Assembly (NCBI RefSeq): GCF_024223415.1
Contig: NZ_CP100500.1
DNA from: Escherichia coli
Lineage (GTDB): Bacteria > Pseudomonadota > Gammaproteobacteria > Enterobacterales > Enterobacteriaceae
Length of the DNA stretch: 64,000 nucleotides
Direction: 5' to 3' (one strand)
Made by a program: the position numbers and the translations under genes. Each line of letters starts with the position of its first letter. Position 1 is the first letter of the stretch. The notes beneath the pieces were generated by a model. It made no database searches. It had not been told where the DNA came from and was given only the letters and a program-made list of their open reading frames with translations. This document shows, piece after piece, positions 1-30,467 of this stretch.

Positions 1-1
1 G

Positions 2-379
<378 letters not shown>

Positions 380-406
380 TTTTACAAATCAGTAACAAAA
401 GTAAAG

Positions 407-446
407 AAGGCGACACCATGCGACTATGGGTCGCCTTTATTTTTTC
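407..446 (+). terminator. rho-independent terminator downstream of trxB
   Basis: 8-bp stem AAGGCGAC / GTCGCCTT (407-414 and 430-437) followed by TATTTTTT. Confidence 0.6.
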
Positions 447-501
447 CCCGTTGTAACATTGCTCTGCAAATAATTCTGATAACTCACCTGCTAAGCGTGC
501 A

Positions 502-3990: not shown

Positions 3991-4031
3991 GCTATTATTG
4001 AACGATCCGACTTGCGTGGAGTTTTGCGGTC

Positions 4032-4736
4032 ATGCGCCTGGTTCAGCTTTCTCGCCATTCAATAGCCTTCCCTTCCCCGGAAGGCGCATTACGTGAGCCT
4101 AACGGCCTGCTGGCACTTGGGGGCGATCTTAGCCCTGCGCGCCTGTTAATGGCTTACCAGCGTGGTATTTTTCCGTGGTTTTCTCCAGGCGACCCCATCC
4201 TCTGGTGGTCGCCAGATCCCCGCGCGGTGCTATGGCCAGAATCACTGCATATCAGCCGTAGTATGAAGCGATTTCATAAACGCTCGCCCTATCGTGTCAC
4301 GATGAATTACGCTTTTGGTCAGGTCATTGAAGGCTGTGCCAGCGATCGCGAAGAAGGAACCTGGATCACGCGTGGCGTGGTCGAAGCCTACCATCGCCTT
4401 CACGAACTCGGTCATGCCCACTCCATTGAAGTCTGGCGTGAAGATGAGCTTGTCGGCGGTATGTACGGCGTGGCCCAGGGAACGCTATTTTGTGGCGAGT
4501 CCATGTTCAGCCGGATGGAAAATGCGTCTAAAACGGCGCTTCTGGTATTCTGTGAGGAATTTATCGGTCATGGCGGTAAGCTTATCGACTGCCAGGTCCT
4601 TAACGATCACACAGCATCGCTTGGTGCCTGCGAAATTCCCCGCCGGGATTACCTTAATTATCTCAATCAAATGCGCCTCGGACGATTGCCGAATAATTTC
4701 TGGGTACCACGATGCTTGTTTTCACCACAAGAATGA
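4032..4736 (+). CDS. aat: leucyl/phenylalanyl-tRNA--protein transferase
   Basis: 234-aa ORF in the conserved cydC-aat-infA context; sequence recognisable as Aat. Confidence 0.9.
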
Positions 4737-5017
4737 ATGTTTTCGGCACATTTCTCCCCAGAGTGTTATAATTGCGGTCGCAGAGTTGGTTACGCTCATT
4801 ACCCCGCTGCCGATAAGGAATTTTTCGCGTCAGGTAACGCCCATCGTTTATCTCACCGCTCCCTTATACGTTGCGCTTTTGGTGCGGCTTAGCCGTGTGT
4901 TTTCGGAGTAATGTGCCGAACCTGTTTGTTGCGATTTAGCGCGCAAATCTTTACTTATTTACAGAACTTCGGCATTATCTTGCCGGTTCAAATTACGGTA
5001 GTGATACCCCAGAGGAT

Positions 5018-5239
<222 letters not shown>

Positions 5240-5281
5240 TTGTTTTACCGCCTGATGGGCGAAGAGAAAGAACGAGTAAAA

Positions 5282-5303
5282 GGTCGGTTTAACCGGCCTT
5301 TTT
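5282..5303 (+). terminator. rho-independent terminator downstream of infA
   Basis: GGTCGG / CCGGCC stem with TTTAA loop followed by TTTTT. Confidence 0.6.
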
Positions 5304-5492
5304 ATTTTGTGATATGTAGGAAGTACTTTGGAAGTATAAGTCCATAACTTGTCTCGATGTAGATATACTGCACAACTTGTTTACAGTATGAGCAAACAAT
5401 AATTATCATTAAAATTCTTCTTGACCGTTTTACTCCAACTCCCTATAGTAGCGCCCCGTTGCCCCCCATGAGGTCAGGCAACAAAACAATTT

Positions 5493-5580
5493 GGTGAGGT
5501 GTCCGAGTGGCTGAAGGAGCACGCCTGGAAAGTGTGTATACGGCAACGTATCGGGGGTTCGAATCCCCCCCTCACCGCCA
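5493..5580 (+). tRNA. serW: tRNA-Ser (anticodon GGA), long variable arm
   Basis: GGTGAGG...CCTCACC acceptor stem, anticodon loop CCTGGAAAG, GGTTCGAATCC T-arm, encoded CCA end; 88 nt; lies after infA as in the conserved core order. Confidence 0.95.
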
Positions 5581-5731: not shown

Positions 5732-6574
5732 CTATACTGCCAGCATGTCAGGATAGTGTCTGACGATAATATCATTCAGTCTGTCAACCAGTTCCGGTTT
5801 CCTGAACGTGATATGCGCGGAGCCTTTCCTGAAGTATCTGATGCTGAACATCTCATCCTCATAGCATGCTTCACCCTGAACGGACCGGATGTGCTCATCC
5901 AGACGAATGAGGATATTGTCCCGGTCAGTGGGTATGGGTTTACCGCTGAACAGATACAGTATCCTTTCCAGGTCGGCAAGCCGCCCGGCCTGCGGACCAT
6001 GGTTCAGACCAAATACCCACCAGTCCCATTTCACCAGGTTGTTGAGGATAATCTTACTGCCGAATTTACAGGGTGACCCGCTGTTGTGCGTCCGGCTCAG
6101 TCCTCTGAAGAGGTTGATGACGCCCCGTTCAGCCATTTCATCCCTGTTACGGTGCAGTTGTTCAGACGTACTCAGGATATTCGCTTCGCTGATTTCCGGA
6201 AAATTATCCTCCTCCAGTGAACGGTACCATTCATCACGCGCCTGTGCATCCATCAGACTCAGCATCCCGGAGCGTTGCATCAGGTCACGCCAGATTTCAC
6301 GGTCAAGGTTCCGGGTGATGGCTTTCATTGCGGTTTCCGGTTTTTCCATCAGCCAGCAGCCACAGCGAAAATCCTGTTTCACGGCCCAGTCCCGGGCCGT
6401 TTTACCTCCGATGCTTTCTGTCATTACTGAGATTTCTGCCAGTTGCCGGATAAGCCTTTCGGTTTGTTGCAGTGCTTCATTCCGTACCGTCACAACGTGC
6501 CGGATACTGGTTGAGCAGATAACGTCCGTATGTCCGTTAAGCGTTTCCGGACGGGAGACTGTGATATCAGACAT
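5732..6574 (-). CDS. hypothetical protein, island-borne (possibly a DUF4942-type protein that often follows cbtA/yeeW modules)
   Basis: 280-aa ORF, first gene after the serW terminator, same strand as the downstream end of the toxin-antitoxin module; family assignment is from memory only. Confidence 0.55.
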   Translation of the reverse strand: MSDITVSRPETLNGHTDVICSTSIRHVVTVRNEALQQTERLIRQLAEISVMTESIGGKTARDWAVKQDFRCGCWLMEKPETAMKAITRNLDREIWRDLMQRSGMLSLMDAQARDEWYRSLEEDNFPEISEANILSTSEQLHRNRDEMAERGVINLFRGLSRTHNSGSPCKFGSKIILNNLVKWDWWVFGLNHGPQAGRLADLERILYLFSGKPIPTDRDNILIRLDEHIRSVQGEACYEDEMFSIRYFRKGSAHITFRKPELVDRLNDIIVRHYPDMLAV

Positions 6575-6887
6575 AACCGATATTCCTTTTTGCAGATAAA
6601 TGAAAACGCCAGCCGTATTCGGACTGGCGTCAGTGGAATGAATCGTGGTGAGTGAGATGATGAGTGAGACTCACAGGTTCTGGTGCTGAAGCTGCAGCTG
6701 GCGCAGGGTGCGGATATCCTCCCTGGCCTGTTCGATACAGGGCAACAGTGCTGCCGAATCCGTTTTATCCTCATCGTTGTCGAAGATAATGCAGGAGCCG
6801 CAGTCGATATTGTCCTGCAGCCACGCAATCAGAATATCCGGTGCTGTTTCTGTGGTTAATGATTTCATACGGTGTCTTTTGTCCCGG

Positions 6888-7376
6888 TTACCAGTCGAAA
6901 GTGGGAAAACCCGGCAGACATTCAGCGCCGGCATCCAGATGAATGAGACTGACGCCATAACGCCGGATGAGAGTGACAACCAGACGACGAAACGTTTTTG
7001 ACAGACCCAGGCGTTTAAGCCGCAGAGCCGGGTACGACCACGCATCAGTACGTAACAGATATCCGCTGCCTGTAAAATGAATCCATTCTGATTCGCCGTT
7101 GTCATTCGTCTGATGCGACAGCGAGTACAGCCAGGCATTGTCCTGCTCCGTGATATGTGCGGTACTGCAGCGTATGCCGGTAAGGGCCGCAAATGGTGGC
7201 ATGCAGTCTGCTGAGGTCCGGTCAGATTCATCAGCAACACGAAGGGAACAGCCATTATCGCAGACCACGTTAATCAGTTCAGCGAGATTAACACCATCGA
7301 CGTCAGCGACAATGCGCCCCATGTTCAGTGCCTGTACGTTAACGCTGTCGGCTTCCAGTGTCAGGGACAGTTTCAT
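6888..7376 (-). CDS. YeeW-like protein (DUF5983-type) downstream of cbtA
   Basis: 162-aa ORF whose start overlaps the cbtA stop by 4 nt (ATGA coupling); position matches yeeW in CP4-44-type modules. Confidence 0.6.
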
Positions 7377-7750
7377 GGTTTCACCTCACAGTGTTTACCC
7401 AGGGTGATGTTGTTCACCATTCTGTAGTGGCTGCGGGTCATCAGGCCGGTCGCCCGGCGGGCCCGGAGAATATCAATGCTGCTGATTAACTGCGATGAAG
7501 CTCCTGCGCTGAATCCCGGCTGGTCGGTACGCACCAGCGCGTATTTTTCCACAAGAAAGTTCACCGCATCACACAGTGAAATACCCGCCTCAATATGCTG
7601 CTCAATCACACGTTCATCGGCGAACGGTGTGTCATTCAGCGTGAGGCCGTAGTGCTGGTCCAGCAGCCGGGTGAGCAGTGTCTGCCAGATTTCAACCGGA
7701 GACGGGCAGCGCGATGTTGCCCGTACGTGTGTGTCGGGGAATGTTTTCAT
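7373..7750 (-). CDS. cbtA: type IV toxin-antitoxin system toxin CbtA (YeeV/YkfI/YpjF family)
   Basis: Internal Met of the 7373..7876 ORF gives [80 protein letters not shown]..., closely matching CbtA. Confidence 0.85.
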
Positions 7751-7808
7751 CTTAAGTACTCTGTAACAGGTGATGATAAAGAAGTGCTGTCCGGGGTTAT
7801 GCGGTGGT

Positions 7809-8174
7809 TCAGGGTGTTGCCGGTGTCGGATAAATGGCGATATACACGTAACCACAACTGCCGAGGGTGTCGGCATCGCAGGTCAGCCCTTTCGCATACA
7901 GTGTCACGGTATGCTGATGGCGGGGACTGAGTTCACCGCTGGTGAGCATGAGTTCCAGCTGTTTCATCAGCAGCGGAAAGGCCTGGTCCAGGTGGTACGC
8001 ATCTGCGTCGCTGAACCGGCCTCTGATACCGGCGCGGTCTGCAAGGTAATGCAGGCGGTTACCCTCCTGCACCAGACGGGCACCAAAACAGGGTGTCACG
8101 GTGCAGGGCAGTCCCCACTAGGGGCGGTCGCTGTTGTCGTCAGGATGCGTTGTCCCGGTGAGTGTGTCTGACAT
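7809..8174 (-). pseudogene. cbeA: cbeA (yeeU-family antitoxin) interrupted by an in-frame amber stop at codon 19
   Basis: Minus-strand translation from ATG at 8174 reads MSDTLTGTTHPDDNSDRP-TAG-WGLPCTVTPCFGARLVQEGNRLHYLADRAGIRG...; the stop is the reverse complement of 8118-8120; the rest of the frame is intact (track ORF 7809..8099 from a GTG). Confidence 0.8.
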
Positions 8175-8224
8175 GATAAAGTCCTCACTGATAATCGGTT
8201 AAGAATGGTTTTAACAATGACGGG

Positions 8225-8869
8225 TCAGCCGGTGCGCAGACCGGCTTCGGTGAAGGTGTATCCGTTGATGAGAAGGGCCTCATCCACGGCGTCGTCTGAG
8301 GTCAGCCAGTCGTACTCGTTTTCCAGTTGACTGTATAACCAGAAGGCAAGGTCCCGCAGGGCGTCACAGACAACGGTTTCCGCGCTGGCTGTCATTGCCT
8401 GTCCGGTCGGACTGTCCCGGGTGACGGTGATATCCATGCTGTACGGATGGCAGTAGTGTCCCCGGTGGCGGATTTCAGCCTGAAGCTGCCGGAAGTTACG
8501 CTTCTGCACCGCCTGCAGGGCATCCGCGATACGATGAAGCTCACGGTCCTGCGGGGCATATTCCCTGATTTTCCGGGGTGCCGCTGGCTGCCAGCGCCAG
8601 CGTCCTTCAAAACAGGCTCCGTCCCCCTGGCTGCAGAATCCGCTGAACCAGATGCACGGCTCTTCCATAAACCTGCCGTTGCTGAGCCGGATAACACGCT
8701 GGCGGAGGGCAATCCCGACAATCTCACAGACCGTCCTGAAGTCCTCATACACGTTTTCATACCAGTTGCTGTCAGCATGATGCTGACGGTACCATTCACG
8801 GGCCTTCTCCCGTGCTGTGGCGGAAAGTTCATCCGGCGTATACACGGTGGTGATGATAATTCTGCTCAT
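8225..8869 (-). CDS. hypothetical protein inserted between the DUF987 gene and cbeA
   Basis: 214 aa from MSRIIITTVYTPDELS; GGAG Shine-Dalgarno 8 nt upstream; tightly packed between the yeeT-like stop (8886) and the cbeA start (8174); no family recognised. Confidence 0.6.
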   Translation of the reverse strand: MSRIIITTVYTPDELSATAREKAREWYRQHHADSNWYENVYEDFRTVCEIVGIALRQRVIRLSNGRFMEEPCIWFSGFCSQGDGACFEGRWRWQPAAPRKIREYAPQDRELHRIADALQAVQKRNFRQLQAEIRHRGHYCHPYSMDITVTRDSPTGQAMTASAETVVCDALRDLAFWLYSQLENEYDWLTSDDAVDEALLINGYTFTEAGLRTG

Positions 8870-8885
8870 CCGCATCTCCACTGAC

Positions 8886-9107
8886 TCAGTTCAGGGTGAC
8901 GCTCATCAGCCGGACATACGGGCCAAAACTGTCCTTCCGGCGTTCGGCAAACACGGCAAGCACACCGGGGATATCCTGCACTTCACGACCGGTATACGCT
9001 TCAGCACTGCCGTGCCAGCGGTATTTACCGGTACAGAACGGAAAAAGACGGGATGACGGATACTGACGGTGAACGCGCATGGCTTCACCACGGGTGATGA
9101 TTTTCAT
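8886..9107 (-). CDS. DUF987 family protein (YeeT/YpjJ-like)
   Basis: 73-aa ORF MKIITRGEAMRVHRQYPSSRLFPFCTGKYRWHGSAEAYTGREVQDIPGVLAVFAERRKDSFGPYVRLMSVTLN. Confidence 0.85.
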   Translation of the reverse strand: MKIITRGEAMRVHRQYPSSRLFPFCTGKYRWHGSAEAYTGREVQDIPGVLAVFAERRKDSFGPYVRLMSVTLN

Positions 9108-9196
9108 GAGAACAGTCCTCCTGAATGTGAAAGTGAGAAACAGCTGAGAAAGAGAAACTGAAGTGACAATATGAAGGTGGCTGTGACGGTGACGGA

Positions 9197-9673
9197 TTAA
9201 AGCAGACCGTGTTCCGCAAAGGAGAACACCCGGCTGCCACCGACTATCAGATGGTCCGGTACCCGGATATCCACCAGGGCCAGTGCCTGTACCAGACGTT
9301 CAGTGATAAGGCGGTCTGCCTTACCGGGTGTGACCTCACCGGACGGATGATTGTGCGCCAGCACCACGGCAGCGGCATTGTGGTACAGGGCGCGTTTAAC
9401 CACCTCCCGGGGATGCACTTCCGTGCGGTTGATGGTACCGGTGAAGAGGGTTTCACCGGCAATCAGCTGATTCTGGTTGTTCAGGTACAGCACCCGGAAC
9501 TCTTCCCGCTCCAGTCCCGCCATGTGCAGAATCAGCCATTCCCGTGCCGCATGCGTGGAGGTGAAGGCCACGCCGGGTTCATGAAGATGGCGGTCCAGGG
9601 TTTTCAGGGCCCGCTGAATGAGGCTGCGCTCGCCGGGCGTCATCGCGCCGGGCAGAAAGGAAATCTGTTGCAT
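9197..9673 (-). CDS. RadC-like JAB-domain protein (YeeS/YfjY family)
   Basis: MQQISFLPGAMTPGERSLIQRALKTLDRHLHEPGVAFTS...HNHPSGEVTPGKADRLITERL; JAMM-type HNHPSG motif. Confidence 0.85.
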   Translation of the reverse strand: MQQISFLPGAMTPGERSLIQRALKTLDRHLHEPGVAFTSTHAAREWLILHMAGLEREEFRVLYLNNQNQLIAGETLFTGTINRTEVHPREVVKRALYHNAAAVVLAHNHPSGEVTPGKADRLITERLVQALALVDIRVPDHLIVGGSRVFSFAEHGLL

Positions 9674-9684
9674 AACCTCACCCC

Positions 9685-10158
9685 TCAGTCGATGATGCGC
9701 ATAATGGCGCTGCATTCCGGATGCTGCAGGGCGTAATCCCGCAGCCGGTAATAATGGACCGTCATGGCATAATGCTCCGTACGGCAGGCGTGATGACTGT
9801 AGGCCATCAGGCAGGCGGCAATGCCGGCGGCTTCAGGGCTCATTTCCGCGCGGTTGCCGTTCATGGTGTTAAACAGTGCCCATGTTTCGTCATCATCGTC
9901 ACCCGGTTCGGGAGCCATAAATGCGCCGCCGTTGTTCAGGGTGTACATATTCCAGATACCCCCACTGTAGTCTTCACACAGACGGTCCATCCAGCCGAAG
10001 ATTCGGGGCTCAAGGGTCACCCACTGCGGAATGAGGCCAAAGTGCTGCGGCCAGAAGCTGATGCGCTGTTCGTCAGGCACTGGGCTGGCAACCAGCTGAG
10101 GTGGATTATTCCCGGATGCAGTGGTTGCGGAAACAGAGTCATGCGAAACCGTTTTCAT
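9685..10158 (-). CDS. antirestriction protein (KlcA/ArdB-like, YfjX family)
   Basis: 157-aa ORF with conserved PDEQRISFWPQHFGLIPQWVTLEPRIFGWMDRLCEDYSGGIWNMYTLNNGGAFMAPEP. Confidence 0.85.
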   Translation of the reverse strand: MKTVSHDSVSATTASGNNPPQLVASPVPDEQRISFWPQHFGLIPQWVTLEPRIFGWMDRLCEDYSGGIWNMYTLNNGGAFMAPEPGDDDDETWALFNTMNGNRAEMSPEAAGIAACLMAYSHHACRTEHYAMTVHYYRLRDYALQHPECSAIMRIID

Positions 10159-20403: not shown

Positions 20404-21453
20404 ATGAAACTTTTCAGTTCAAAACAGCGGACAAAAATTTATTTCAAACGGACTGTAATACCAGCAACTTTTCTTTTCGCATCATTTCCCGCTTTTTCAC
20501 AGGATATTGTCACCCTTTATACAACCAGAGAGCCCGGCCTGATTAAGCCACTTCTGGACAGCTGGACAAAAAGCAGCGGTATAAATGTTAATACGGTTTA
20601 TATCAAGGACGGTATGCTGGAGCGGATTAAAGCTGAAGGAAAAAATTCTCCAGCCGATCTACTGATGACCGTCGATGCCGGAAATCTCATTGATTTAGTC
20701 GAAGCGGGAGTCACTCAGCCTGTTGAATCTGAAATACTGAAAACGGCCATTCCGGCAAATCTTCGTGGAGAAAATAACCACTGGTTTGCTTTATCCATGC
20801 GGGCCCGGGTACTGTATGCAGAAAAAAACTTCCCCATTGACAGCCTGCATTATGAACAACTCGCCAGCCCTGAATACAAAGGCAGGGTCTGCATGCGTTC
20901 AGGGCAGCACCCTTATAATACAGCATTGATTGCTGCCATGATCGCCCACCACGGAGAAGAAAAAGCAGAGGAGTGGTTACACGGTCTTAAAACCAACCTG
21001 TCACGAAAAGCAACGGGGGGCGATCGCGACATAGCCCGCGATATTTTAGGAGGGATATGTGACATCGGACTTGCGAATTCTTATTACGTCGGTCATATGA
21101 AAAATGCCAAAGAAGGGACAGATGCACGCAAATGGGGAGATGCAATTAAAGTAATCAAACCAGCCTTCGTGCAGGGAGGGACCCATGTCAACATAACCGG
21201 CGCAGCCGTTGCTCGTTATGCACCGAACAAAGAAAATGCAATAAAACTGATGGAGTATCTCATATCTGTTCCGGCGCAGCAGCAATATGCCAAAGCTAAC
21301 TTTGAGTACCCGGTACTCAAAGGCGTTGATCTTGACCCTGTCATCAGAACCACTATTGGTGAAATAGATGTCGATAAAATTCCGTTAACTGACATCGTAA
21401 AGAACCGCAAACAGGCAAGCTTACTGGTAGATAAAGTTGGGTTCGATCAATAA
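20404..21453 (+). CDS. afuA: ferric iron ABC transporter periplasmic binding protein (AfuA/FbpA family)
   Basis: 349-aa ORF with signal peptide, first gene of a binding protein-permease-ATPase operon. Confidence 0.8.
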   Translation: MKLFSSKQRTKIYFKRTVIPATFLFASFPAFSQDIVTLYTTREPGLIKPLLDSWTKSSGINVNTVYIKDGMLERIKAEGKNSPADLLMTVDAGNLIDLVEAGVTQPVESEILKTAIPANLRGENNHWFALSMRARVLYAEKNFPIDSLHYEQLASPEYKGRVCMRSGQHPYNTALIAAMIAHHGEEKAEEWLHGLKTNLSRKATGGDRDIARDILGGICDIGLANSYYVGHMKNAKEGTDARKWGDAIKVIKPAFVQGGTHVNITGAAVARYAPNKENAIKLMEYLISVPAQQQYAKANFEYPVLKGVDLDPVIRTTIGEIDVDKIPLTDIVKNRKQASLLVDKVGFDQ

Positions 21454-23125
21454 ATCATTTTGGGCTTTAGTGTGGCGTTATCTTTTTTCTGCATTACGTT
21501 CCACGCTAAAGCCTTTACATCTGTGCTCGCTGTGTATCGCACTGGGTGTTCTTACACCTGTCATAACGTTATTCTGGCTGGCAACAGATGCAGACAGTTC
21601 GCAATGGAGCGGTTTTTTAACGTTTGTGCTACCTTCCGCTCTGCAGAATACCGTTATTCTGTTAACGGGTGTTGCTGTAATGACATGCGTTCTTGGTGTG
21701 GGGTGCGCCTGGGCAGTGACTGTCTGGGATTTTCCCGGCCGAAAAATGCTCAGCTGGGCATTAGTGTTACCTCTGGCCATGCCTGCCTATATTGTTGCTT
21801 TTGCATGGCTCGATCTCCTGCATCCCCTGGGGCCTCTGCAAAATTTTATCCGTCTTTTATCGGGATTTGACAGTCCCCGTCAGTTTCGTCTGCCGGATTT
21901 GCGCTCCCTTCCCGGAGCGATAATATTACTCGGTCTTGTACTGTATCCTTATGTCTACCTGACCTGCCGACCGGTGTTTATCAATCAGTCCGCTCACTTA
22001 CTGGAGGCAGCACGAACATTAGGTTGTGGCCCTGTCTCTGCTTTTTTCCGGGTAACGCTACCTCTGGCACGCCCAGCAATAGTGACAGGTATGAGTCTGG
22101 CCCTTCTGGAAACCCTGAACGACATTGGTGCATCTGAATTTCTCGGTATCCGGACAATCACAGTAACAGTCTACACCACATGGATATCACGCTCTGATCT
22201 TGCCGGTGCTGCACAAATTGCCGGCATAGTTCTGACATTTGTCTTCATGATTCTGGGTCTTGAATTTTTGTTCCGGAGAAAACAGGTATTCAGTAGTCGC
22301 AGTATGCGGGGAATACAACAAATCAGGATTTATGGCTGGCGTGGATGGTTGCTGTGCAGCATTACAGCACTGCCCGTTATTCTGGGATTTTGCGCACCTG
22401 TATTATTCCTGGGATGGGAAAGTGCAAAGCGTCTCGGAGAAGGGATTACGATATCTTCATCATTGCTGTCAGCACTGAAAAATACATTGTTTCTCGCATC
22501 CGGTACGACCCTGATTGTATCAGGGGTCAGTTTACTGGTGGTCTGGAGCGCACGGCACAGTGTACTGAACAGCCGTTTCATCGAATTCCGACGAACGGTC
22601 ATGCACCTGGCATCTTCAGGATATGCTGTTCCCGGTACTATTCTTGCTATCGGCTTTCTGCCGCCTGCAATGCTGGTTGATCACTGGCTCGCTGGTCTTC
22701 TTAATATCAGCGGCCTTCCCCTCATGTCTGCAGGTATACTGTTAGTTATTTGCTGTGCGATTCGTTTCCTGGCCATTTCAACCGGAGCGCTTGATTCAGC
22801 CCTTGGTCGCATACCGCCGTCACTGGAACAGGCATCACGATTACTGGGAGAAAATGGCGCAGGGACTTTTGTCAGAGTTCATTTGCCATTACTTCGCCCT
22901 GCTCTGATCAGCAGTGCGCTGCTGGTTTTCTCCGACGTGATGAAAGAACTGCCGACCACCTTACTGCTACGACCTGTTAACTTTGAGACCCTGTCCACAC
23001 TCCTGTATGCGGAAGCGGCACGTGGAACCTACGAACAGGGCGCAATTGCTGCACTGTTAATCGTACTTGCCGGCATACTCCCTGTGATTTTATTAGTACG
23101 CAGGCAAATGAACAGTCACCACTAA
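21437..23125 (+). CDS. afuB: ferric iron ABC transporter permease (AfuB/FbpB family)
   Basis: 562-aa polytopic membrane protein with duplicated permease halves; overlaps afuA stop. Confidence 0.8.
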   Translation: MGSINKSFWALVWRYLFSALRSTLKPLHLCSLCIALGVLTPVITLFWLATDADSSQWSGFLTFVLPSALQNTVILLTGVAVMTCVLGVGCAWAVTVWDFPGRKMLSWALVLPLAMPAYIVAFAWLDLLHPLGPLQNFIRLLSGFDSPRQFRLPDLRSLPGAIILLGLVLYPYVYLTCRPVFINQSAHLLEAARTLGCGPVSAFFRVTLPLARPAIVTGMSLALLETLNDIGASEFLGIRTITVTVYTTWISRSDLAGAAQIAGIVLTFVFMILGLEFLFRRKQVFSSRSMRGIQQIRIYGWRGWLLCSITALPVILGFCAPVLFLGWESAKRLGEGITISSSLLSALKNTLFLASGTTLIVSGVSLLVVWSARHSVLNSRFIEFRRTVMHLASSGYAVPGTILAIGFLPPAMLVDHWLAGLLNISGLPLMSAGILLVICCAIRFLAISTGALDSALGRIPPSLEQASRLLGENGAGTFVRVHLPLLRPALISSALLVFSDVMKELPTTLLLRPVNFETLSTLLYAEAARGTYEQGAIAALLIVLAGILPVILLVRRQMNSHH

Positions 23126-23140
23126 AGGAACCCAACCACC

Positions 23141-23818
23141 ATGTCAGAAATTGCCCTGAGTCTTAATGATGTTCATGTTGTTTATACCAGAAGCAGACAG
23201 GTCGTGTTACAGGGTTTTTCAATGTCCGTTCATAAAGGTGAACTTGTATGTCTGCTTGGCGTTTCAGGTTGTGGAAAAACAACCGTATTACGAACTGTAG
23301 CAGGCCTGGAACGATTACAACAAGGTGAAATATTCATATCACAACGCTGTGTAGCCGGAGCCGGAATTCATCTCCCCCCGGAAAAGCGCAGGGTCGGAAT
23401 GGTCTTTCAGGAATATGCTCTGTTTCCCCACCTGACAGTAACACAAAATGTAGCCTTTGGTCTGCGCCATCTGCCTTATGAACTACAGCATGCCAGAGTC
23501 ACTGAACTTCTGAAAATGGTTGAATTATTATCCTGTGCAAAGCGCTATCCTCATGAACTCTCAGGTGGACAGCAACAACGTATTGCACTTGCCAGAGCAC
23601 TGGCCCCGGCCCCTGATATTTTGTTACTGGATGAGCCATTTTCCAGTCTGGATAAACAAACCAGTGAATACCTAGTGAAAGAAGTACGGGACCTGTTACG
23701 TAGTTCAGGTCAGACAGCCCTGATCGTTACTCATAATGAATCAGAAGCACTCGAAATATCAAACCGTATTTGTATCATGACGGAGGGTAATATAAGTTCG
23801 GTTCAGTCTGTGGTCTGA
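23141..23818 (+). CDS. afuC: ferric iron ABC transporter ATP-binding protein, short form (ATPase core only)
   Basis: Walker A GVSGCGKTT, signature LSGGQQQRIALARAL, Walker B ILLLDEP, H-loop VTHNESEA; 225 aa, no C-terminal extension. Confidence 0.8.
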   Translation: MSEIALSLNDVHVVYTRSRQVVLQGFSMSVHKGELVCLLGVSGCGKTTVLRTVAGLERLQQGEIFISQRCVAGAGIHLPPEKRRVGMVFQEYALFPHLTVTQNVAFGLRHLPYELQHARVTELLKMVELLSCAKRYPHELSGGQQQRIALARALAPAPDILLLDEPFSSLDKQTSEYLVKEVRDLLRSSGQTALIVTHNESEALEISNRICIMTEGNISSVQSVV

Positions 23819-24625
23819 GACGTAACCGCACATTCAGGATCCCCTGTTCGTCATGGAAGCTGTATTATGTAACTATATGGAGGCATAGCAGATATTGTTG
23901 AAGAAATACATCAAAAACACTCACATTTCTGGTACAACAGGAGTTGTAGATTTAATGATTATTGGGACGAAGTTACTACAGAAAAGCTGTACCGGGAACA
24001 GGTATGGTAGTTCCTTGTCACGTGTGGATTAAATGAGCATAATGCAGATCAATTACAAAAGGCATTTCGTAATAGCTCTGTTGTTGATTCGGTTACCATG
24101 ATGGCTGTGGCAAGAGCCACCATGTGACTATACATGATATAATTATTTGTGTGATGTTGTTATACCTGAACAACAGGCATGAGATAATGGAAAAAATTAT
24201 ACATATAACTCGGCTTTCCCATACTCCACTACAGAACAGTATATGATTCTGAACATTTCAATCTAGGCGCATTACATAACTATATTACATGTAACTATCT
24301 GGCCCTCAAATCATCGAGAGAATTGTTTAAAGTCAGCAGTCATAATCTGAATATAGATCATTATCACATAATTTAATTCTTAATTCACTACATTTTCCCT
24401 TGAATCCGGTATAATAAGACAGAGCACATGGCTGATGCTTTGTTTCGGTGTGGATAATCTGGTGGCGTCGGCTATGTGCTCTCAACAGTTAACTTATTAT
24501 GAATACTATTATCAATACAGGTTTTACATAAAAAATAAAAAGCATCTCCTGATATCAGCCCAGTCTCTTTGGGCTAACCAGAATTATACATAAGCTATGC
24601 AGATATTAATTTGCATACAAAACCA

Positions 24626-25108
24626 TTATTTTCTTGAGCACACTATACTAATGTATCCCAGAAGAGGTCCTGTGCATAATCCTGTTGCTGCCCATAATAC
24701 AGCAAGTGAAATATCAGGACCATCTGTATCCGGATAAAATCCTCCATAATAAACAGCAAATACAGTAGAGTATGCATTGAATGCAGGTAAACTACTGTTC
24801 ATGCACGGTATCTGAAGGAGTAAAAGAAGAACATACACTGTTATTATTACTGATATAATGATTGCCAACATGGCAGAAATGTGCAGGGATATCATGTAAT
24901 TTATAGCAGCAATACATAACACAGACGTTGCTATACCGGGAAGTAATGAAGCATAAATTTTCTTTAATATGTCAGGCGTCGCTCCCAGAGCATAGTACCA
25001 TGCCCAGCCAATAAATATAGCCCACACAGGAATATTAATCCCCGGCCATGAAGCCAGGCATGACAGCCCTGCTAACAGGGCTATGGTAAGATTCATCGGT
25101 AATTTCAT
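24626..25108 (-). CDS. hypothetical integral membrane protein (last gene of the carboxylase operon)
   Basis: 160-aa ORF, four or five hydrophobic helices, 15 nt downstream of the PxpC-like gene. Confidence 0.6.
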   Translation of the reverse strand: MKLPMNLTIALLAGLSCLASWPGINIPVWAIFIGWAWYYALGATPDILKKIYASLLPGIATSVLCIAAINYMISLHISAMLAIIISVIITVYVLLLLLQIPCMNSSLPAFNAYSTVFAVYYGGFYPDTDGPDISLAVLWAATGLCTGPLLGYISIVCSRK

Positions 25109-25122
25109 TTCAGACGCACCTG

Positions 25123-26109
25123 TTATGAGCCATAAGATAATGAATTAATGAGAAGGTTGAGTCTTTCATTAAATTCTTTACGGATTTCCAGAGCTTTATC
25201 CATACTGACTTGTGAAAATGTCACACTGGAGCCGGGTGCAAGTTGAGCCAGAATATCGAGATCAGTACTCACTACTGTCCCCACTGTCATATATCCCCCT
25301 CCTGATACAGCATCCCTGTGCAAAACTATTGGTGTGCTTCCAGAGGGAACCTGAATTGATCCCACGGGATAACAGGCATCAACGATATTTGATGGATCTG
25401 AACCAGCACCAAATGGCGGGTGCCGATCAACAAAATTAAGTGAGCGCCCTCCCTGAAACCTGAAACCTGTTCTGTCTGAATCCTTACTGATCTTCCATAC
25501 ATCATCAAAAAAACTTTCAACTGATTCCTGTTTCAGGCGATGGATATACATTCCGGGTACAACACGTAATTCATTTTCTTTAGTAAAAACTGGACGTAAC
25601 TCATCTGGCAGAGTGTAATTTATACGCCCTTTATTACATATTGCTTCCTGTACGGGTAATTCATCTCCGGCCTGTAACCGACGTCCTTTATAACCACCAA
25701 GACTGCCAAGGAGGTAAGTAGAACGACTTCCGGCAATAACAGGGACATTAATACCTCCCGCGATGGCAAGGTAACAGCGTACACCCACCGTGGTGTATGC
25801 GATTTTTAATATCTGTCCTTTCCGGGCTAACAGGGATGTATTCACCGGAACACTCTGATTATCCAGGGTCACCGTAAAAGGGGCACCGCTGACTGCAAAA
25901 AGAGTATCCTGCTCAAACAAGAGTTCGGGCCCCAGTAATGTGCATTCCAGCGCTGCATCAAACGGGTGATTACCGACAAGCAAATTGGCGGTAACTAACC
26001 CTGTACGATCTAATGCACCGGATGGCGGGATCCCGAGATGATAAAAGCCTTCTCGTCCTCCGTCCTGAACGGACGTGGATAATCCGGGCGTCAATACTTT
26101 AATTCCCAT
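25123..26109 (-). CDS. biotin-dependent carboxyltransferase family protein (allophanate hydrolase subunit 2 / PxpC-like)
   Basis: Start placed at MGIKVLTPGLSTSVQDGGREG; overlaps upstream gene by 11 nt. Confidence 0.8.
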   Translation of the reverse strand: MGIKVLTPGLSTSVQDGGREGFYHLGIPPSGALDRTGLVTANLLVGNHPFDAALECTLLGPELLFEQDTLFAVSGAPFTVTLDNQSVPVNTSLLARKGQILKIAYTTVGVRCYLAIAGGINVPVIAGSRSTYLLGSLGGYKGRRLQAGDELPVQEAICNKGRINYTLPDELRPVFTKENELRVVPGMYIHRLKQESVESFFDDVWKISKDSDRTGFRFQGGRSLNFVDRHPPFGAGSDPSNIVDACYPVGSIQVPSGSTPIVLHRDAVSGGGYMTVGTVVSTDLDILAQLAPGSSVTFSQVSMDKALEIRKEFNERLNLLINSLSYGS

Positions 26110-26983
26110 ACAGTTCTCCCAGTAAATTTTTAGTATAATCTTCAGGATTTTCTTCAAATGCGTTCAAATCAAAATTTACAGGCCTGATAAGTAATTCAAA
26201 ATTACCAGATTCCACATCACTTATACATTGATTATATTGTTCAGTATTGATCGCCCTGAACTTAATGATGTCCCCTGCCCGGAAAAACACCATAGAGTCT
26301 TTGAAATATGATAATTTCTGTTCTGTGTCATAAATCGGAGCTGGTGTTATACCGAACAATTGATACCCACCTGCCCCCCGGACTGGATATATAGCCCCGA
26401 AGCACCCGCCATGACCAACAGAATGTTTTGGTGTATCAGTTCTGGGAACAAGATATTTTGGAACCTGGATTTGCTTTTTCCGGTCAACCATCTGATACAT
26501 AAAAGGCAGCCCGGCAACGAAGCCAACCATAGAAACAAACCAGGGACTTGAATGATGGGCCTCAATAAACGTCTGAACATCCGGATATCCGTTTATTTCA
26601 GCAGCATACTCAAGATCGGTTAATGCCGGGTTTTGATGATTATTCCGGAACCGCATCAGGGTTTCATGAGTCCATGGATCATTATACAATACAGGAATTT
26701 CAATTATACGTGTCTGTAGTGTCATTTCTCCATTCCCGGAGAGCACATTAACATTTCGTATCTGTTGTAACAAATCATCAGGGTGTATAATGTCGGGATT
26801 AAATCTTATCTGACATGATGCATTTGCAAGGCAAATATCGAGCACACCATTAATATTTAATGATTCTATTTTTCTCGTAAGAGACAAGCTGTGAAAAAAT
26901 GCTTTAAGAGACATTTCCTCACTGACTTCGATGAAAAGATGCTCATCAGCACCAAATGTATAGCGCAAATTTATATCAGTCAT
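26099..26983 (-). CDS. allophanate hydrolase subunit 1 / PxpB-like (KipI family)
   Basis: 294-aa ORF in the conserved position between the biotin carboxylase and the PxpC-like gene. Confidence 0.75.
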   Translation of the reverse strand: MTDINLRYTFGADEHLFIEVSEEMSLKAFFHSLSLTRKIESLNINGVLDICLANASCQIRFNPDIIHPDDLLQQIRNVNVLSGNGEMTLQTRIIEIPVLYNDPWTHETLMRFRNNHQNPALTDLEYAAEINGYPDVQTFIEAHHSSPWFVSMVGFVAGLPFMYQMVDRKKQIQVPKYLVPRTDTPKHSVGHGGCFGAIYPVRGAGGYQLFGITPAPIYDTEQKLSYFKDSMVFFRAGDIIKFRAINTEQYNQCISDVESGNFELLIRPVNFDLNAFEENPEDYTKNLLGELYGN

Positions 26984-26992
26984 ACAGGTTCC

Positions 26993-28354
26993 TCATTTAA
27001 ATGCACCGGTATTCAGCCAGTCTTCAAGCGTTTTATTATGAAACTGAGCATTTCTGAAAAACTCAGCTGATAATAATGCTTCATGAAGAGGTATAGTTGT
27101 ATGAACGCCTTCTATTTGCATATTACCAAGGGTCTCCCGGGCAAGACTTATCGTTTTTTCTCTGCTGTCAGTATGAATAATAAGTTTTGCCAGTAAAGAA
27201 TCATACCAGAGAGGCATCTTATACCCTTCAAACATGTGAGTATCGACTCTTATTCCCTGCCCTTCAGGTATCTGCAATACCGATATTGTTCCGGGACTGG
27301 GCATAAAACCATTGTAAGGATTTTCTGCATTAATCCTCATTTCAATTGCAGCTCCCTGTAACGTAATCTCATCCTGTCCAAACGACAGAGAGTCGCCCCC
27401 GGCAATTCTCAGCATCCAGTCGATAATATCAATGCCTGTGACCATTTCTGTAACCGGATGTTCAACCTGAATCCGCGTATTCATTTCAATAAAAAAGAAT
27501 TCCCCGCTCCGGTCATCGACCAGGTACTCAATAGTTCCTGCGCTTGAATAATTCAGCATTCTGGCGAGATTCAGTGCACTCTGACATAAGGCCTCACGTA
27601 GTGACGCTGAAACAGAAGGCGATGGCGCTTCTTCTGTCACTTTTTGTCTTTTTCTCTGCAGAGAACACTCTCGTTCAAACAGGTGAACGATGTTTTTTCC
27701 GTCTCCAAGGATCTGAACTTCAACATGACGGGCTTCCGGTATATAACGTTCCAGATATACACCATCGTGCCCGAAAGCTGCTTTTGCTTCAGCACGCGCT
27801 ACTGTATATTCATGCACCAGCTGTTCCGGAGAATGTACAATCCGTATCCCCTTCCCGCCTCCCCCGGCCGAGGCCTTTATCAATAAAGGATATCCGGTAA
27901 TATCCGATGCTACTGATAATGCCTCCTCAGGGCTTATAACCTCGCCATTTGAGCCTGGTACAACCGGGACACCTGCCTTTATCGCGCAATCTCTCGCGAT
28001 TGCTTTATCCCCCATTTGCTCAATAATCTGAGGAGATGGCCCAACAAAAATAAGCCCTGCATCGAGCACCGCACGGGCAAAAGACGCATTCTCCGACAGA
28101 AAACCATATCCGGGATGAATGGCCTGAGCGCCAGACTGAAGGGCTGCATCAATTATCTTCTTTCCGTCCAGATAACTGTCATCGGCACGGGATTTACCTA
28201 TGACAATAACTTCATCGGCGCTCTTTGCCGGAAGAGAATTGATGTCTGATTCGCTACATGCCAGCACCGTTTTTATATTCAGCTTCTTTGCACTTCGTAT
28301 AATTCGTAATGCAATCTCACCTCTGTTGGCAATAAGCAGTTTTTGAATACTCAT
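26993..28354 (-). CDS. biotin carboxylase (AccC paralogue, ATP-grasp)
   Basis: 453 aa MSIQKLLIANRGEIALRIIRSAK...; ATP-grasp motifs; ...EMNTRIQVEHPVTE. Confidence 0.9.
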   Translation of the reverse strand: MSIQKLLIANRGEIALRIIRSAKKLNIKTVLACSESDINSLPAKSADEVIVIGKSRADDSYLDGKKIIDAALQSGAQAIHPGYGFLSENASFARAVLDAGLIFVGPSPQIIEQMGDKAIARDCAIKAGVPVVPGSNGEVISPEEALSVASDITGYPLLIKASAGGGGKGIRIVHSPEQLVHEYTVARAEAKAAFGHDGVYLERYIPEARHVEVQILGDGKNIVHLFERECSLQRKRQKVTEEAPSPSVSASLREALCQSALNLARMLNYSSAGTIEYLVDDRSGEFFFIEMNTRIQVEHPVTEMVTGIDIIDWMLRIAGGDSLSFGQDEITLQGAAIEMRINAENPYNGFMPSPGTISVLQIPEGQGIRVDTHMFEGYKMPLWYDSLLAKLIIHTDSREKTISLARETLGNMQIEGVHTTIPLHEALLSAEFFRNAQFHNKTLEDWLNTGAFK

Positions 28355-28364
28355 GCTCAGTTCC

Positions 28365-28622
28365 TTATATTATTTCTATGGTAGCCAGTACCTGACCAGG
28401 TTCCACTTCCTCCCCATTCTCCACCTTAAACTGGATATTAGTCCCGGTTGTTTCAGCATGAATTTCGTTAAACTGCTTCATTATTTCAATCAACCCAATG
28501 ACGGTACTCTCCTGAACAGTGTCACCATTCTCCAGAAACGGGGCACTATCAGGTGCTGGTTTCCGATAAAATACACCAGGTAAAGGTGAAAGAATTTCTG
28601 TAACAGCCATAACATCCTCCAT
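28365..28622 (-). CDS. biotin carboxyl carrier protein (biotinyl domain)
   Basis: 85-aa ORF with biotin-attachment-like EIMKQ motif. Confidence 0.75.
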   Translation of the reverse strand: MEDVMAVTEILSPLPGVFYRKPAPDSAPFLENGDTVQESTVIGLIEIMKQFNEIHAETTGTNIQFKVENGEEVEPGQVLATIEII

Positions 28623-28627
28623 GTATA

Positions 28628-29389
28628 TCAGTTTTGAGAATTTACACTTATGTCTGCCTCACGTAAGGCTTTATTTATTGCAATCAGAAGAGATAAGGCA
28701 CCGGGCGTATCACTATGGACACAGACAGAAGAGAAATGAATGTCAATATCCTGATCTTCTACAGTACGAACTTTTCCCTCCAGACAGGCACGCAGCACTT
28801 TTTTTGCGACATCATCAGGATTAAGAGGTTCAGTTCTCCGTATAAATACAATGGAACCGCTTTGATCATAATCCCTGTCGGCATAAAACTCACAAATAAC
28901 AGGATGTCCGATTTGCGTCGCTTCTTTCCAGATGGCACTACCATACATGCAATATATTCTCAATTCAGGCGCATAACTATGAAGCGTTGAGACAAAATGC
29001 TTTGCAGCATCCCGATCATGAGCAAGATGCATATACAACGCGCCATGAGGCTTAACATGGTTTACAGGCACATTGTGTAATGTGGCAAATTCACGCAAGG
29101 CCCCCAGCTGATAAATCATGTCATTGGTGATTTCCTCTGCGGTGCAGTGAATATGACGCCGGCCAAAACCAGCCAGATCACGATAACCGGGATGAGCACC
29201 GACAGACACACCACTGTCACGGGCGCTGATTATTGTACGGTGCATAATCCCCGGATCACCTGCATGAAAACCTGTCGCTATATTCGCTGAGGAGATGTAT
29301 GGCATAATATCAATATCCCGGATATCTCCGAGAGTCCATGCTCCAAAGCTTTCCCCCATATCAGAGCTGATATCAATACTGCGAAGCAT
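28628..29389 (-). CDS. LamB/YcsF family protein (5-oxoprolinase subunit A / PxpA-like)
   Basis: Start at MLRSIDISSDMGESFGAW with GGAGG Shine-Dalgarno; track ORF extends to 29437. Confidence 0.8.
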   Translation of the reverse strand: MLRSIDISSDMGESFGAWTLGDIRDIDIMPYISSANIATGFHAGDPGIMHRTIISARDSGVSVGAHPGYRDLAGFGRRHIHCTAEEITNDMIYQLGALREFATLHNVPVNHVKPHGALYMHLAHDRDAAKHFVSTLHSYAPELRIYCMYGSAIWKEATQIGHPVICEFYADRDYDQSGSIVFIRRTEPLNPDDVAKKVLRACLEGKVRTVEDQDIDIHFSSVCVHSDTPGALSLLIAINKALREADISVNSQN

Positions 29390-29531: not shown

Positions 29532-30467
29532 ATGAACATCACACTCAGACAGATAAAATATTTCGTATCAACAGCGGAGTCCGGATCGTTATCAACTGCA
29601 GCCAAATCACTCAATATTTCACAGTCTGCGATAACAACAGCAATTCAGGGGCTTGAAAGGGACATCGGTTATAAATTACTGATTCGCTCAAAATCTGGCG
29701 TTGATTTAACAGATGAGGGAAGACTGTTCTTATACAATGCCTACAATATTATCCGGACATATGATGAGGCAATAAATACAGTGCATGTTCAGAAGCCTTT
29801 GCATGGAACAGTTTCCATTGCGGCGACTTATACAATAATGGGATATTTTTTACCTGTTCATCTGAAACAATTTTCAAGAATTTATCCACATATAAAGCTG
29901 GAGCTTTTTGAAAATCAAAGAAGCATTATTGAAACCGGACTTCTCAGCGGAAAATATGATATTGGGATTGTAATCAATGATAATCTGACATGTCCCGATA
30001 TTGTATCAGAAACACTGTTACGGTCGGAGCGCCGTATATGGTTACCATCCGGCCACCCTCTGCTGGAAAAAGAAATTCTCTCCCTGAATGATATTGTCTC
30101 AGAGCCTTTTATTATCCTTGATGTGGATGAAGCATGGGAAACAGCAAAACGTTACTGGAATACGGCCAGTACCATGCCAGATGTAATTTTACATACGCAT
30201 TCTATTGAAGCTGTACGAAGTATGGTTGCGAATGATATGGGTATAACCATTCTTTCTGACATGGTTTATCGCCCATGGTCGCTTGAAGGGAAACGTATAG
30301 AAACACGCGCATTATCTAAATCAGAAGTTTTCCCAATGAGTATTGGCCTGGCATGGCGTAATAATGTTGAGTTTACGCCTGCAATGCAGGCTTTCATCAA
30401 TTATTTCAGAAAGATTTTTATGTGTTCTCCCGGTTATCAAAACCGGAATGTTGACCACTTTATCTGA
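29532..30467 (+). CDS. LysR-family transcriptional regulator, divergent from the carboxylase operon
   Basis: MNITLRQIKYFVSTAESGSLSTAAKSLNISQSAITTAIQGLE... (helix-turn-helix); track ORF begins 30 nt upstream. Confidence 0.85.
   Translation: MNITLRQIKYFVSTAESGSLSTAAKSLNISQSAITTAIQGLERDIGYKLLIRSKSGVDLTDEGRLFLYNAYNIIRTYDEAINTVHVQKPLHGTVSIAATYTIMGYFLPVHLKQFSRIYPHIKLELFENQRSIIETGLLSGKYDIGIVINDNLTCPDIVSETLLRSERRIWLPSGHPLLEKEILSLNDIVSEPFIILDVDEAWETAKRYWNTASTMPDVILHTHSIEAVRSMVANDMGITILSDMVYRPWSLEGKRIETRALSKSEVFPMSIGLAWRNNVEFTPAMQAFINYFRKIFMCSPGYQNRNVDHFI

Follow-up and report, generated by a model that had tools for sequence, protein, structure and literature searches.

Does an operon of iron-uptake type in Escherichia coli whose ABC ATPase is only 225 aa long encode an intact importer or a truncated one, and what would it import? 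The operon occupies positions 20,404 to 23,818 of the window, the 64,000-nucleotide stretch of contig NZ_CP100500.1 (assembly GCF_024223415.1) that was analysed here. We consider it very probable that the locus is an intact FbpABC-type ferric-iron ABC importer, belonging to the subfamily of Bordetella pertussis FbpABC and acquired on a tRNA-Ser island.

An intact three-gene operon

The operon consists of three intact genes.

20404..21453, + strand: fbpA-type gene for a periplasmic ferric-binding protein, 349 aa, predicted class III (three-tyrosine)
21437..23125, + strand: fbpB-type gene for a fused double permease, 562 aa, TTG start
23141..23818, + strand: fbpC-type gene for an ABC ATPase, 225 aa, with a complete nucleotide-binding domain and lacking a C-terminal regulatory domain

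The fbpA-type gene overlaps the permease gene by 17 nt, and the 562-aa permease contains two BPD_transp_1 stretches according to Pfam. The same three genes are found in the RefSeq annotation of a genome that is 100% identical over positions 20100-24700 of the window, including matching permease coordinates. With the open reading frames and the RefSeq annotation in agreement, the sequence-only reading was right to describe the operon as complete and ordered binding protein, permease, ATPase. The Buttiauxella and Citrobacter permeases are also 562 aa long, and their genes also overlap the binding-protein gene by 17 nt. A fused permease encoded between the binding-protein and ATPase genes is present in four genera, these two included, and in 73 loci.

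The binding protein and its probable substrate

From its homology and ligand positions, the binding protein is assigned to class III FbpA, with B. pertussis FbpA (PDB 1Y9U) as its closest relative. The match to 1Y9U covers residues 33-348 with an E value of 5.5e-144 and roughly 70% identity, and the FbpA structures of Mannheimia haemolytica (1Q35) and Moraxella catarrhalis (7LI0) are matched at E values of 4.9e-82 and 4.5e-62, respectively. The N-terminus is hydrophobic and lies ahead of where the crystallised chain begins, and is read as a putative signal peptide. Class III FbpA is defined by three tyrosines and a carbonate that is held by arginines of the N-lobe (PMC10182148). In a 10-sequence alignment, Arg42, Arg133, Tyr171, Tyr227 and Tyr228 of the E. 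coli protein are all invariant. The three tyrosines align with Tyr142, Tyr198 and Tyr199 of 1Q35, and the two arginines with its Arg10 and Arg101. We infer that the substrate of the E. coli operon would be ferric iron.

The iron might be carried in a different form. It is conceivable, though rather unlikely, that the main cargo taken up from the periplasm is ferric siderophores or other ferric chelates and not bare Fe3+. This is suggested by the very close homology of the E. coli binding protein to that of B. pertussis, where FbpABC is reported to be iron-repressed and required for growth on native and foreign siderophores (reviews PMC8489951, PMC8891985). However, the Bordetella evidence is reported by a secondary source, and the binding site of the E. 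coli protein is a conserved class III site for Fe3+ and an anion. Moreover, no gene for a TonB-dependent receptor is adjacent to the operon in the window or in four other genus contexts. Chelate import would be a refinement of ferric-iron import by an FbpABC-type system, with no contradiction between the two.

It is very improbable that the operon is instead a true AfuABC homologue, with sugar phosphates or a different small organic anion as its substrate and not iron. The sequence-only reading had called it 'afuABC-type', and AfuABC, a hexose/heptose-phosphate transporter, was itself long mis-annotated as an iron system (PMC4546632). The top NCBIfam matches of the E. coli proteins are also models of 2-aminoethylphosphonate and thiamine transporters. 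However, no AfuA chain is found among the PDB matches to the binding protein even at E <= 10, and P5PA (6WCE), the only relative from the AfuA group that is listed, reaches an E value of just 1.9e-4 compared to 5.5e-144 for B. pertussis FbpA. The invariance of the iron-ligand tyrosines and the anion-binding arginines also argues against an organic substrate. The 'afuABC-type' label is imprecise, given that no AfuA match was obtained and that the binding protein is best described as a class III FbpA.

The NCBIfam scores for phosphonate and thiamine transport are all far under their cut-offs. A thiamine importer of the ThiBPQ type was rejected with scores of 162.4 for ThiQ (cut-off 245.05), 24.5 for ThiB (317.15) and 24.9 for ThiP (679). 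A 2-aminoethylphosphonate importer of the PhnSTUV type was rejected as well, with 54.7 for PhnS2 (cut-off 392.75), 94.8 for PhnU2 (593.25) and 251 for PhnT2 (457.7). All three proteins of the operon stay under the cut-offs of all NCBIfam equivalog models and so receive no name from a curated model.

Length of the ATPase and the spacer behind its gene

The 225-aa ATPase has all of the motifs that had been reported from the sequence alone, namely Walker A GVSGCGKT (residues 40-47), the signature LSGGQ (140-144), Walker B ILLLDE (160-165) with the catalytic Glu, and the H-loop His198. A Q-loop (Q90) and a D-loop SSLD (168-171) are also present. Pfam matches in the 225 residues are limited to ABC_tran (E 2.1e-34) and P-loop models akin to it; TOBE is not among them. 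Short whole-protein models are matched almost end to end, with FtsE covered from 3 to 213 of 214 positions and ThiQ from 13 to 211 of 213. In sequence, the ATPase most resembles TOBE-bearing proteins of the FbpC/PotA/CysA type, and it scores 195.9 bits against the E. coli ferric ATPase model NF008513, which has a cut-off of 496. Residues 16-220 can be aligned with residues 13-219 of Neisseria gonorrhoeae FbpC (3FVQ) at an E value of 1.9e-53. The regulatory domain of 3FVQ consists of residues 242-352 (PMC2896483), and the C-terminus of the E. coli ATPase falls 17 residues short of its start.

The length of such an ATPase needs to be judged against the right subfamily and not against generic FbpC/AfuC proteins. 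The closest homologues, 57-75% identical and coming from Buttiauxella, Citrobacter, Salmonella diarizonae, Providencia, Brenneria, Edwardsiella and Variovorax, are nearly all 216-240 aa long. At an ATPase-domain identity of >=58%, every relative is 221-242 aa long, and relatives of 340-380 aa with TOBE appear only at <=56%. TOBE_2 is present in the long relatives P0128 and P0129 and absent from the short ones, among them the Bordetella and Achromobacter forms of 258-263 aa. The short ATPases are visible as a clade in identity-based average-linkage clustering, which is not a rooted phylogeny. When loci were collected by means of the binding protein alone, 80 loci of different species were obtained, 73 of them with readable downstream DNA, and the downstream ATPase has an equivalent length of 217-263 aa in 73/73. 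The genes directly 3' of the ATPase gene are unrelated to it in four genera, and convergent in three.

Between the ATPase gene and position 24625, the window contains no remnant of a regulatory domain, but it does contain the remnant of another gene.

23959..24248, + strand: decayed GNAT N-acetyltransferase pseudogene, in the spacer and outside the operon

A tblastn search of 23700-24700 with C-terminal domains taken from 105 long relatives found no relic of the regulatory domain 3' of the ATPase stop codon. The sole match (E 2.6e-6, 23723-23794) lies inside the ATPase gene and is due to an offset in cutting the query protein. The GNAT relic is recognized as two tblastn segments that do not share a frame and have a combined E value of 1e-12; it carries in-frame stops as well as a frameshift. 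Positions 23959-24195 of the window have 75% DNA identity to an intact GNAT gene of six other E. coli genomes. The earlier description of the next 800 bp as gene-free holds for intact genes, none of which is present in 23819-24625 (807 bp), but not for this decayed one. An Rfam scan of 19000-25200 gave no match at E <= 1. One weak terminator-like hairpin was detected at 23986-24008, inside the GNAT relic, which is fewer than expected by chance. Since this single weak hairpin is below the chance number, we do not claim an operon terminator.

With relatives that are uniformly short and no relic downstream, the 225-aa ATPase is not anomalous. Judged by these alignments, 225 aa is the normal length in the B. 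pertussis-type FbpABC subfamily, and the E. coli gene is not truncated. The sequence-only reading had considered 225 aa anomalously short and had named alignment to the subfamily as the check that could overturn this view; that alignment gives an ordinary length, with close homologues of 216-240 aa in nearly all cases and 217-263 aa at all 73 loci. The idea that a nonsense mutation, frameshift or deletion removed a ~125-aa regulatory domain and crippled the transporter is next to impossible, and is refuted by the sequence comparisons, as the generic FbpC/AfuC/PotA/CysA/MalK models and solved structures of 340-380 aa, of which the query covers just the first ~220 positions, and the unusually long spacer 3' of the gene are outweighed by dozens of species in Enterobacterales and Burkholderiales whose short ATPases stop at the same place, by the identical 225-aa sequence on at least 1000 contigs, and by a spacer that holds an unrelated GNAT relic and no TOBE-like coding remnant.

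Upstream region and possible control by Fur

The region ahead of the operon contains a Fur-box-like site and two candidate promoters.

20338..20360, no strand assigned: Fur-box-like site, overlapping the candidate -10 hexamer
20319..20346, + strand: candidate sigma-70 promoter, TTTACA, 16-nt spacer, AATAAT, 10/12 consensus matches
20299-20326: second candidate sigma-70 promoter, from a consensus scan

Positions 20338-20356 of the Fur-like site have 13/19 matches to GATAATGATAATCATTATC, and this score was reached in 306/2000 shuffles of the region (15%), so that by itself it lacks significance. At <=3 mismatches, the 19-bp Fur consensus has no match in the whole window. Promoter-like sites in the upstream region are not enriched, with 8 observed compared to 10.8 expected from shuffles.

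The best Fur score is >=13/19 in 54/77 orthologous upstream regions, compared to 27/600 (4.5%) for 250-bp windows drawn at random from those loci. These Fur-like sites are mostly located 70-110 bp ahead of the start codon. Comparison of the regions upstream of the operons in Citrobacter, Buttiauxella, Cedecea, Enterobacter and Klebsiella gives a conserved Fur-like core, GTGATTATCATTTA, with which the E. coli site aligns. The E. coli site is found at the homologous place, and several of its positions differ from this core. The caution with which a Fur box had earlier been suggested was justified, since the best E. coli score is only 13/19 and is equalled by 15% of shuffles; the candidate is supported by the related loci but is weak in E. 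coli itself. The enrichment and the conserved position suggest that the operon may be controlled through Fur.

Island context and distribution

Of 5426 complete genomes of E. coli, 11 have the operon, which is carried by a tRNA-Ser genomic island. The E. coli strains that have it include human and poultry isolates. In strain MS 119-7, the operon is interrupted by IS2, with IS21-family elements on its flanks. Its rarity and its broken state in MS 119-7 indicate that the operon is dispensable.

Proposed mechanism and significance

In the proposed mechanism, the exported binding protein would capture Fe3+ between its two lobes, where Tyr171, Tyr227 and Tyr228 would coordinate the metal jointly with a synergistic anion that Arg42 and Arg133 of the N-lobe hold in place. 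The binding protein would dock on the fused permease of 562 aa, and import would be powered by ATP hydrolysis in a dimer of the 225-aa ATPase, which is a complete minimal nucleotide-binding domain. The absence of a TOBE-type domain suggests that control would be solely transcriptional, probably by Fur, with no feedback through the ATPase and hence no trans-inhibition.

How this arrangement arose can be proposed only tentatively. The subfamily may descend from TOBE-bearing ATPases similar to FbpC, PotA and CysA by a single ancient loss of their regulatory domain, leaving it with no ATPase feedback and with control by Fur only, and the E. coli copy, with its degraded Fur-like site, could be weakly regulated and partly constitutive. 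We give this scenario a low probability. The short ATPase is a trait of the subfamily. It is speculative that the domain was lost just once, that trans-inhibition is absent and that regulation is leaky.

The finding is an ordinary one and matters little. It corrects the label of the operon to FbpABC with a class III binding protein, in place of the sugar-phosphate system AfuABC, and it points to a Bordetella-type ferric-iron importer in circulation among E. coli, where a small minority carry it on a tRNA-Ser island. A subfamily that is uniformly without the regulatory domain of neisserial FbpC provides a natural comparison for the role of that domain, and the related upstream regions supply a candidate Fur site that can be tested.

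Comparison with known systems

The closest known system is B. pertussis FbpABC (PDB 1Y9U, 2OWS, 2OWT), in which the binding-protein precursor is 349 aa long as in E. coli and the permease has 556 aa (PMC8891985 table) compared to 562 aa. The same table lists a 'B. pertussis ABC transport protein' of 354 aa; this is a BLAST match to Shewanella FbpC and was rejected as the ATPase of the operon. Loci of the genus Bordetella have the same gene order as in E. coli and an ATPase that is likewise short and without TOBE (258 aa in B. ansorpii), with the tail of the E. coli ATPase ~30 aa shorter than those of Bordetella and Achromobacter. Bordetella FbpABC is reported to be repressed by iron (PMC8489951). 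Unlike it, the E. coli copy is located on a tRNA-Ser island, is rare and has a weak Fur-like site. All five site positions of the M. haemolytica (1Q35/1SI0) and M. catarrhalis (7LI0) FbpA proteins are kept in the E. coli protein, to which both are more distant than B. pertussis FbpA.

The FbpABC (HitABC) systems of N. gonorrhoeae and Haemophilus influenzae have the three-component architecture and the ferric-ion substrate that would apply to the E. coli operon. Their binding proteins are distant relatives of the E. coli one (E about 1e-15 to 1e-16) and use a different ligand set, consisting of His, Glu, two Tyr and phosphate. At the C-terminus of neisserial FbpC there is a domain-swapped regulatory domain of ~110 aa (PMC2896483), which the E. 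coli ATPase lacks.

AfuABC of Actinobacillus pleuropneumoniae and Citrobacter rodentium has the gene order and the broad binding-protein superfamily in common with the E. coli operon, and the A. pleuropneumoniae permease is 687 aa long (PMC8891985 table) compared to 562 aa. ThiQ of ThiBPQ is a domain-only ATPase like that of the E. coli operon, at ~213-234 aa judging from NCBIfam model lengths. ThiBPQ and Archaeoglobus fulgidus ModBC are both type I importers with a minimal ATPase and are not orthologues of the E. coli operon. ThiQ works with ThiP, likewise a fused double permease, and with a binding protein from the superfamily of the E. coli one, and A. fulgidus ModC is without the regulatory domain that Methanosarcina acetivorans ModC uses for trans-inhibition. 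From the contrast between the two ModC proteins, the presence or absence of a regulatory domain within one transporter family is already well known.

Operon structure and integrity

The operon is composed of three overlapping or closely spaced genes encoding an fbpA-type binding protein, a fused fbpB-type permease and an fbpC-type ATPase. Its open reading frames, as predicted by the sequence-only reading, are borne out by RefSeq, in which the same three genes are annotated in a genome 100% identical across window 20100-24700.

Genes of the operon and the relic that follows them
20404-21453, + strand, solute-binding protein gene, open reading frame of 349 aa
21437-23125, + strand, permease gene, open reading frame of 562 aa with a TTG start and two BPD_transp_1 modules
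23141-23818, + strand, ABC ATPase gene, open reading frame of 225 aa
23959-24248, + strand, decayed GNAT N-acetyltransferase pseudogene with 75% DNA identity to an intact GNAT gene, in-frame stops and a frameshift

The stop of the binding-protein gene overlaps the permease start by 17 nt (21437-21453; TTG in E. coli). This overlap is kept in Buttiauxella and Citrobacter, and its conservation suggests translational coupling of the two genes. In the ATPase all the expected motifs are present, namely Walker A (residues 40-47), Q-loop, LSGGQ (140-144), Walker B (160-165), D-loop and H-loop (His198). The TOBE domain, the C-terminal regulatory domain of long FbpC-type ATPases, was not found by a Pfam domain search of the protein, in agreement with the earlier description of a 225-aa ATPase ending before such a domain.

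Length of the ATPase

The same reading regarded 225 aa as anomalously short. Homologue lengths and an independent set of loci show instead that this length is the norm of the B. pertussis-type subfamily, an outcome which that reading had itself named as its refutation. In a search of 5.8 billion proteins, a length of 216-240 aa was seen in almost all of the closest ATPase homologues (57-75% identity; Buttiauxella, Citrobacter, Rahnella, Salmonella diarizonae, Providencia, Brenneria, Xenorhabdus, Edwardsiella and Variovorax), and all eight aligned ATPases end 7-19 residues past the last invariant glycine, Gly216. A HMMER search on 50%-identity cluster representatives gave a 231-aa protein as the best match (333 bits), followed by single-domain matches of 242-266 aa at 54-61% identity; among these representatives, proteins of the typical 340-380 aa predominate from about 55% identity down. 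When ranked by identity across the ATPase domain, sequences at 58% or above all have 221-242 aa, and long ones are met only from 56% downwards. Pfam TOBE_2 is found in the long neighbours but is absent from the short ones.

As an independent anchor, one genome per species was searched with the binding-protein alignment only, and 80 loci were kept, 73 of them with readable downstream DNA. The ATPase after the permease has an equivalent length of 217-263 aa in all 73 readable loci, none of which carries an ATPase near 350 aa. The longest forms occur in Bordetella and Achromobacter (258 aa for the B. ansorpii open reading frame), still without TOBE. Unrelated genes lie directly 3' of the ATPase gene in Buttiauxella, Citrobacter, Providencia and Variovorax, so that neither a lost domain nor a fourth conserved gene could fit there. 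No relic of a regulatory domain was found 3' of the E. coli ATPase stop with the C-terminal domains of 105 long relatives as queries. Two short whole-protein models are covered almost completely by the ATPase, FtsE over 3-213 of 214 and ThiQ over 13-211 of 213. In contrast to N. gonorrhoeae FbpC, whose regulatory domain comprises residues 242-352 (PMC2896483), the E. coli ATPase lacks such a domain and aligns to residues 13-219 only.

The 807 bp 3' of the ATPase gene, described earlier as gene-free, contain no intact gene and no Rfam match, but a pseudogene relic is present. At the DNA level, window 23959-24195 shares 75% identity with a GNAT acetyltransferase gene (144 aa) that is intact in six other E. 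coli genomes. On translation, the match falls into two pieces that lie in different frames and contain in-frame stops, so the spacer is a decayed gene unrelated to the ATPase. The intact counterpart in other E. coli sits near sitCD and lsr genes.

Upstream region

A Fur box had been suspected upstream of the operon without being defined. In the window, no site with three or fewer mismatches to the 19-bp consensus was found, but a candidate with 13/19 matches lies at 20338-20356, overlapping the -10 hexamer of a candidate promoter (20319-20346). Since a score of at least 13 is reached in 15% of shuffles of the upstream region, this site is not significant by itself. Among orthologous upstream regions, 54 of 77 have a best score of at least 13/19, versus 27 of 600 windows of 250 bp drawn at random from these loci, and most of these sites are 70-110 bp 5' of the start codon, GC-rich Variovorax included. 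The aligned Enterobacterales regions share a conserved core, GTGATTATCATTTA, on which E. coli TCTATTACCATTTA is aligned with several substitutions. Fur control is plausible for the operon family, and the E. coli site is a candidate only.

A second conserved block, GTGTAAATGT[AG]AATC[AG]TTT, is located ~35 bp 5' of the main core in Citrobacter, Buttiauxella and Cedecea. It occupies columns of about 76-100 in the alignment of orthologous upstream regions (window about 20305-20329), is poorly conserved in E. coli, and could represent either a further Fur site or the -35 region.

Genomic island and distribution

The island holding the operon begins directly after tRNA-Ser(GGA) (5493-5580), and the left flank (1-5484) carries cydDC and aat. 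Window 5485-41742 is >99.5% identical to strain TUM1886, in which the island follows the other tRNA-Ser copy, adjoining ghrA; both tRNA-Ser(GGA) genes have therefore served as insertion sites. Colinearity with TUM1886 ends at 41742, and within 41743-64000 only 62115-63100 matches a TUM1886 segment (87% identity), one that includes an inovirus Gp2-type gene.

The island has CP4-44-like genes (a CbtA/YeeU toxin-antitoxin pair, RadC, an antirestriction protein, an Ag43 pseudogene and a GTPase), an IS66-family element and, past the operon, DUF1097 with a pxpABC-like carboxylase cluster. The Ag43/Cah autotransporter pseudogene is interrupted by an internal stop and directly adjoins the IS66-family ISEc8 (tnpA, tnpB and transposase; about 12160-17631, - strand). 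Convergent with the operon at about 24626-29389 (- strand) are DUF1097, two 5-oxoprolinase-like subunits (PxpB/PxpC-like), a biotin carboxylase, a biotin carrier protein and PxpA, with a divergent LysR regulator beyond them at about 29532-30467 (coordinates transferred from RefSeq, accurate to about 1 bp). The gene content of this cluster resembles that of a biotin-dependent hydrolase module of the lactam or oxoproline type, carried as island cargo.

Only 11 of 5426 complete E. coli genomes have the 4.6-kb operon region. In E. coli MS 119-7 (locus 6000-9841) the operon is decaying: an IS2 insertion splits the ATPase gene, and the binding-protein gene is reduced to a 141-bp remnant adjoining IS21-family elements.

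Proposed mechanism

By homology, the exported binding protein would capture Fe3+ with a synergistic anion and dock on the fused permease, and import would be powered by a dimer of the minimal ATPase. With no regulatory domain, feedback at the ATPase is not expected, and control would be transcriptional only. A regulatory domain can vary within one transporter family, being absent from ModC of A. fulgidus and present in ModC of M. acetivorans; ThiQ is another minimal ATPase.

Comparison with known ferric-iron importers

NCBIfam equivalog scores for thiamine, phosphonate, polyamine, sulfate and E. coli ferric (NF008513) systems are all far under their cut-offs. The label "afuABC-type" given by the sequence-only reading is a poor one: with an E cut-off as loose as 10, the PDB matches of the binding protein included no AfuA chain, and AfuABC is a hexose/heptose-phosphate transporter (PMC4546632).

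The binding protein matches the B. pertussis FbpA structure 1Y9U over residues 33-348 (E 5.5e-144) and, more weakly, M. haemolytica FbpA 1Q35 (E 4.9e-82); further weaker matches are cyanobacterial FutA, M. catarrhalis FbpA (7LI0) and C. jejuni FbpA. Five iron-site positions of 1Q35 are conserved, with Tyr171, Tyr227 and Tyr228 aligned on Tyr142, Tyr198 and Tyr199, and Arg42 and Arg133 on Arg10 and Arg101. The five residues are invariant across ten orthologues. Class III ferric-binding proteins are defined by three tyrosines and a carbonate held by N-lobe arginines, and in M. catarrhalis the tyrosines are essential (PMC10182148). According to reviews, B. pertussis FbpABC is an iron-repressed ferric transporter required for growth on native and foreign siderophores, and the ligands of its FbpA include free iron as well as ferric-siderophore complexes (PMC8489951; PMC8891985). 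Judged by its sequence, the operon is intact, was acquired horizontally and encodes an ordinary ferric-iron importer of the FbpABC type, B. pertussis subfamily; it is a new, so far uncharacterised representative of these already known importers.
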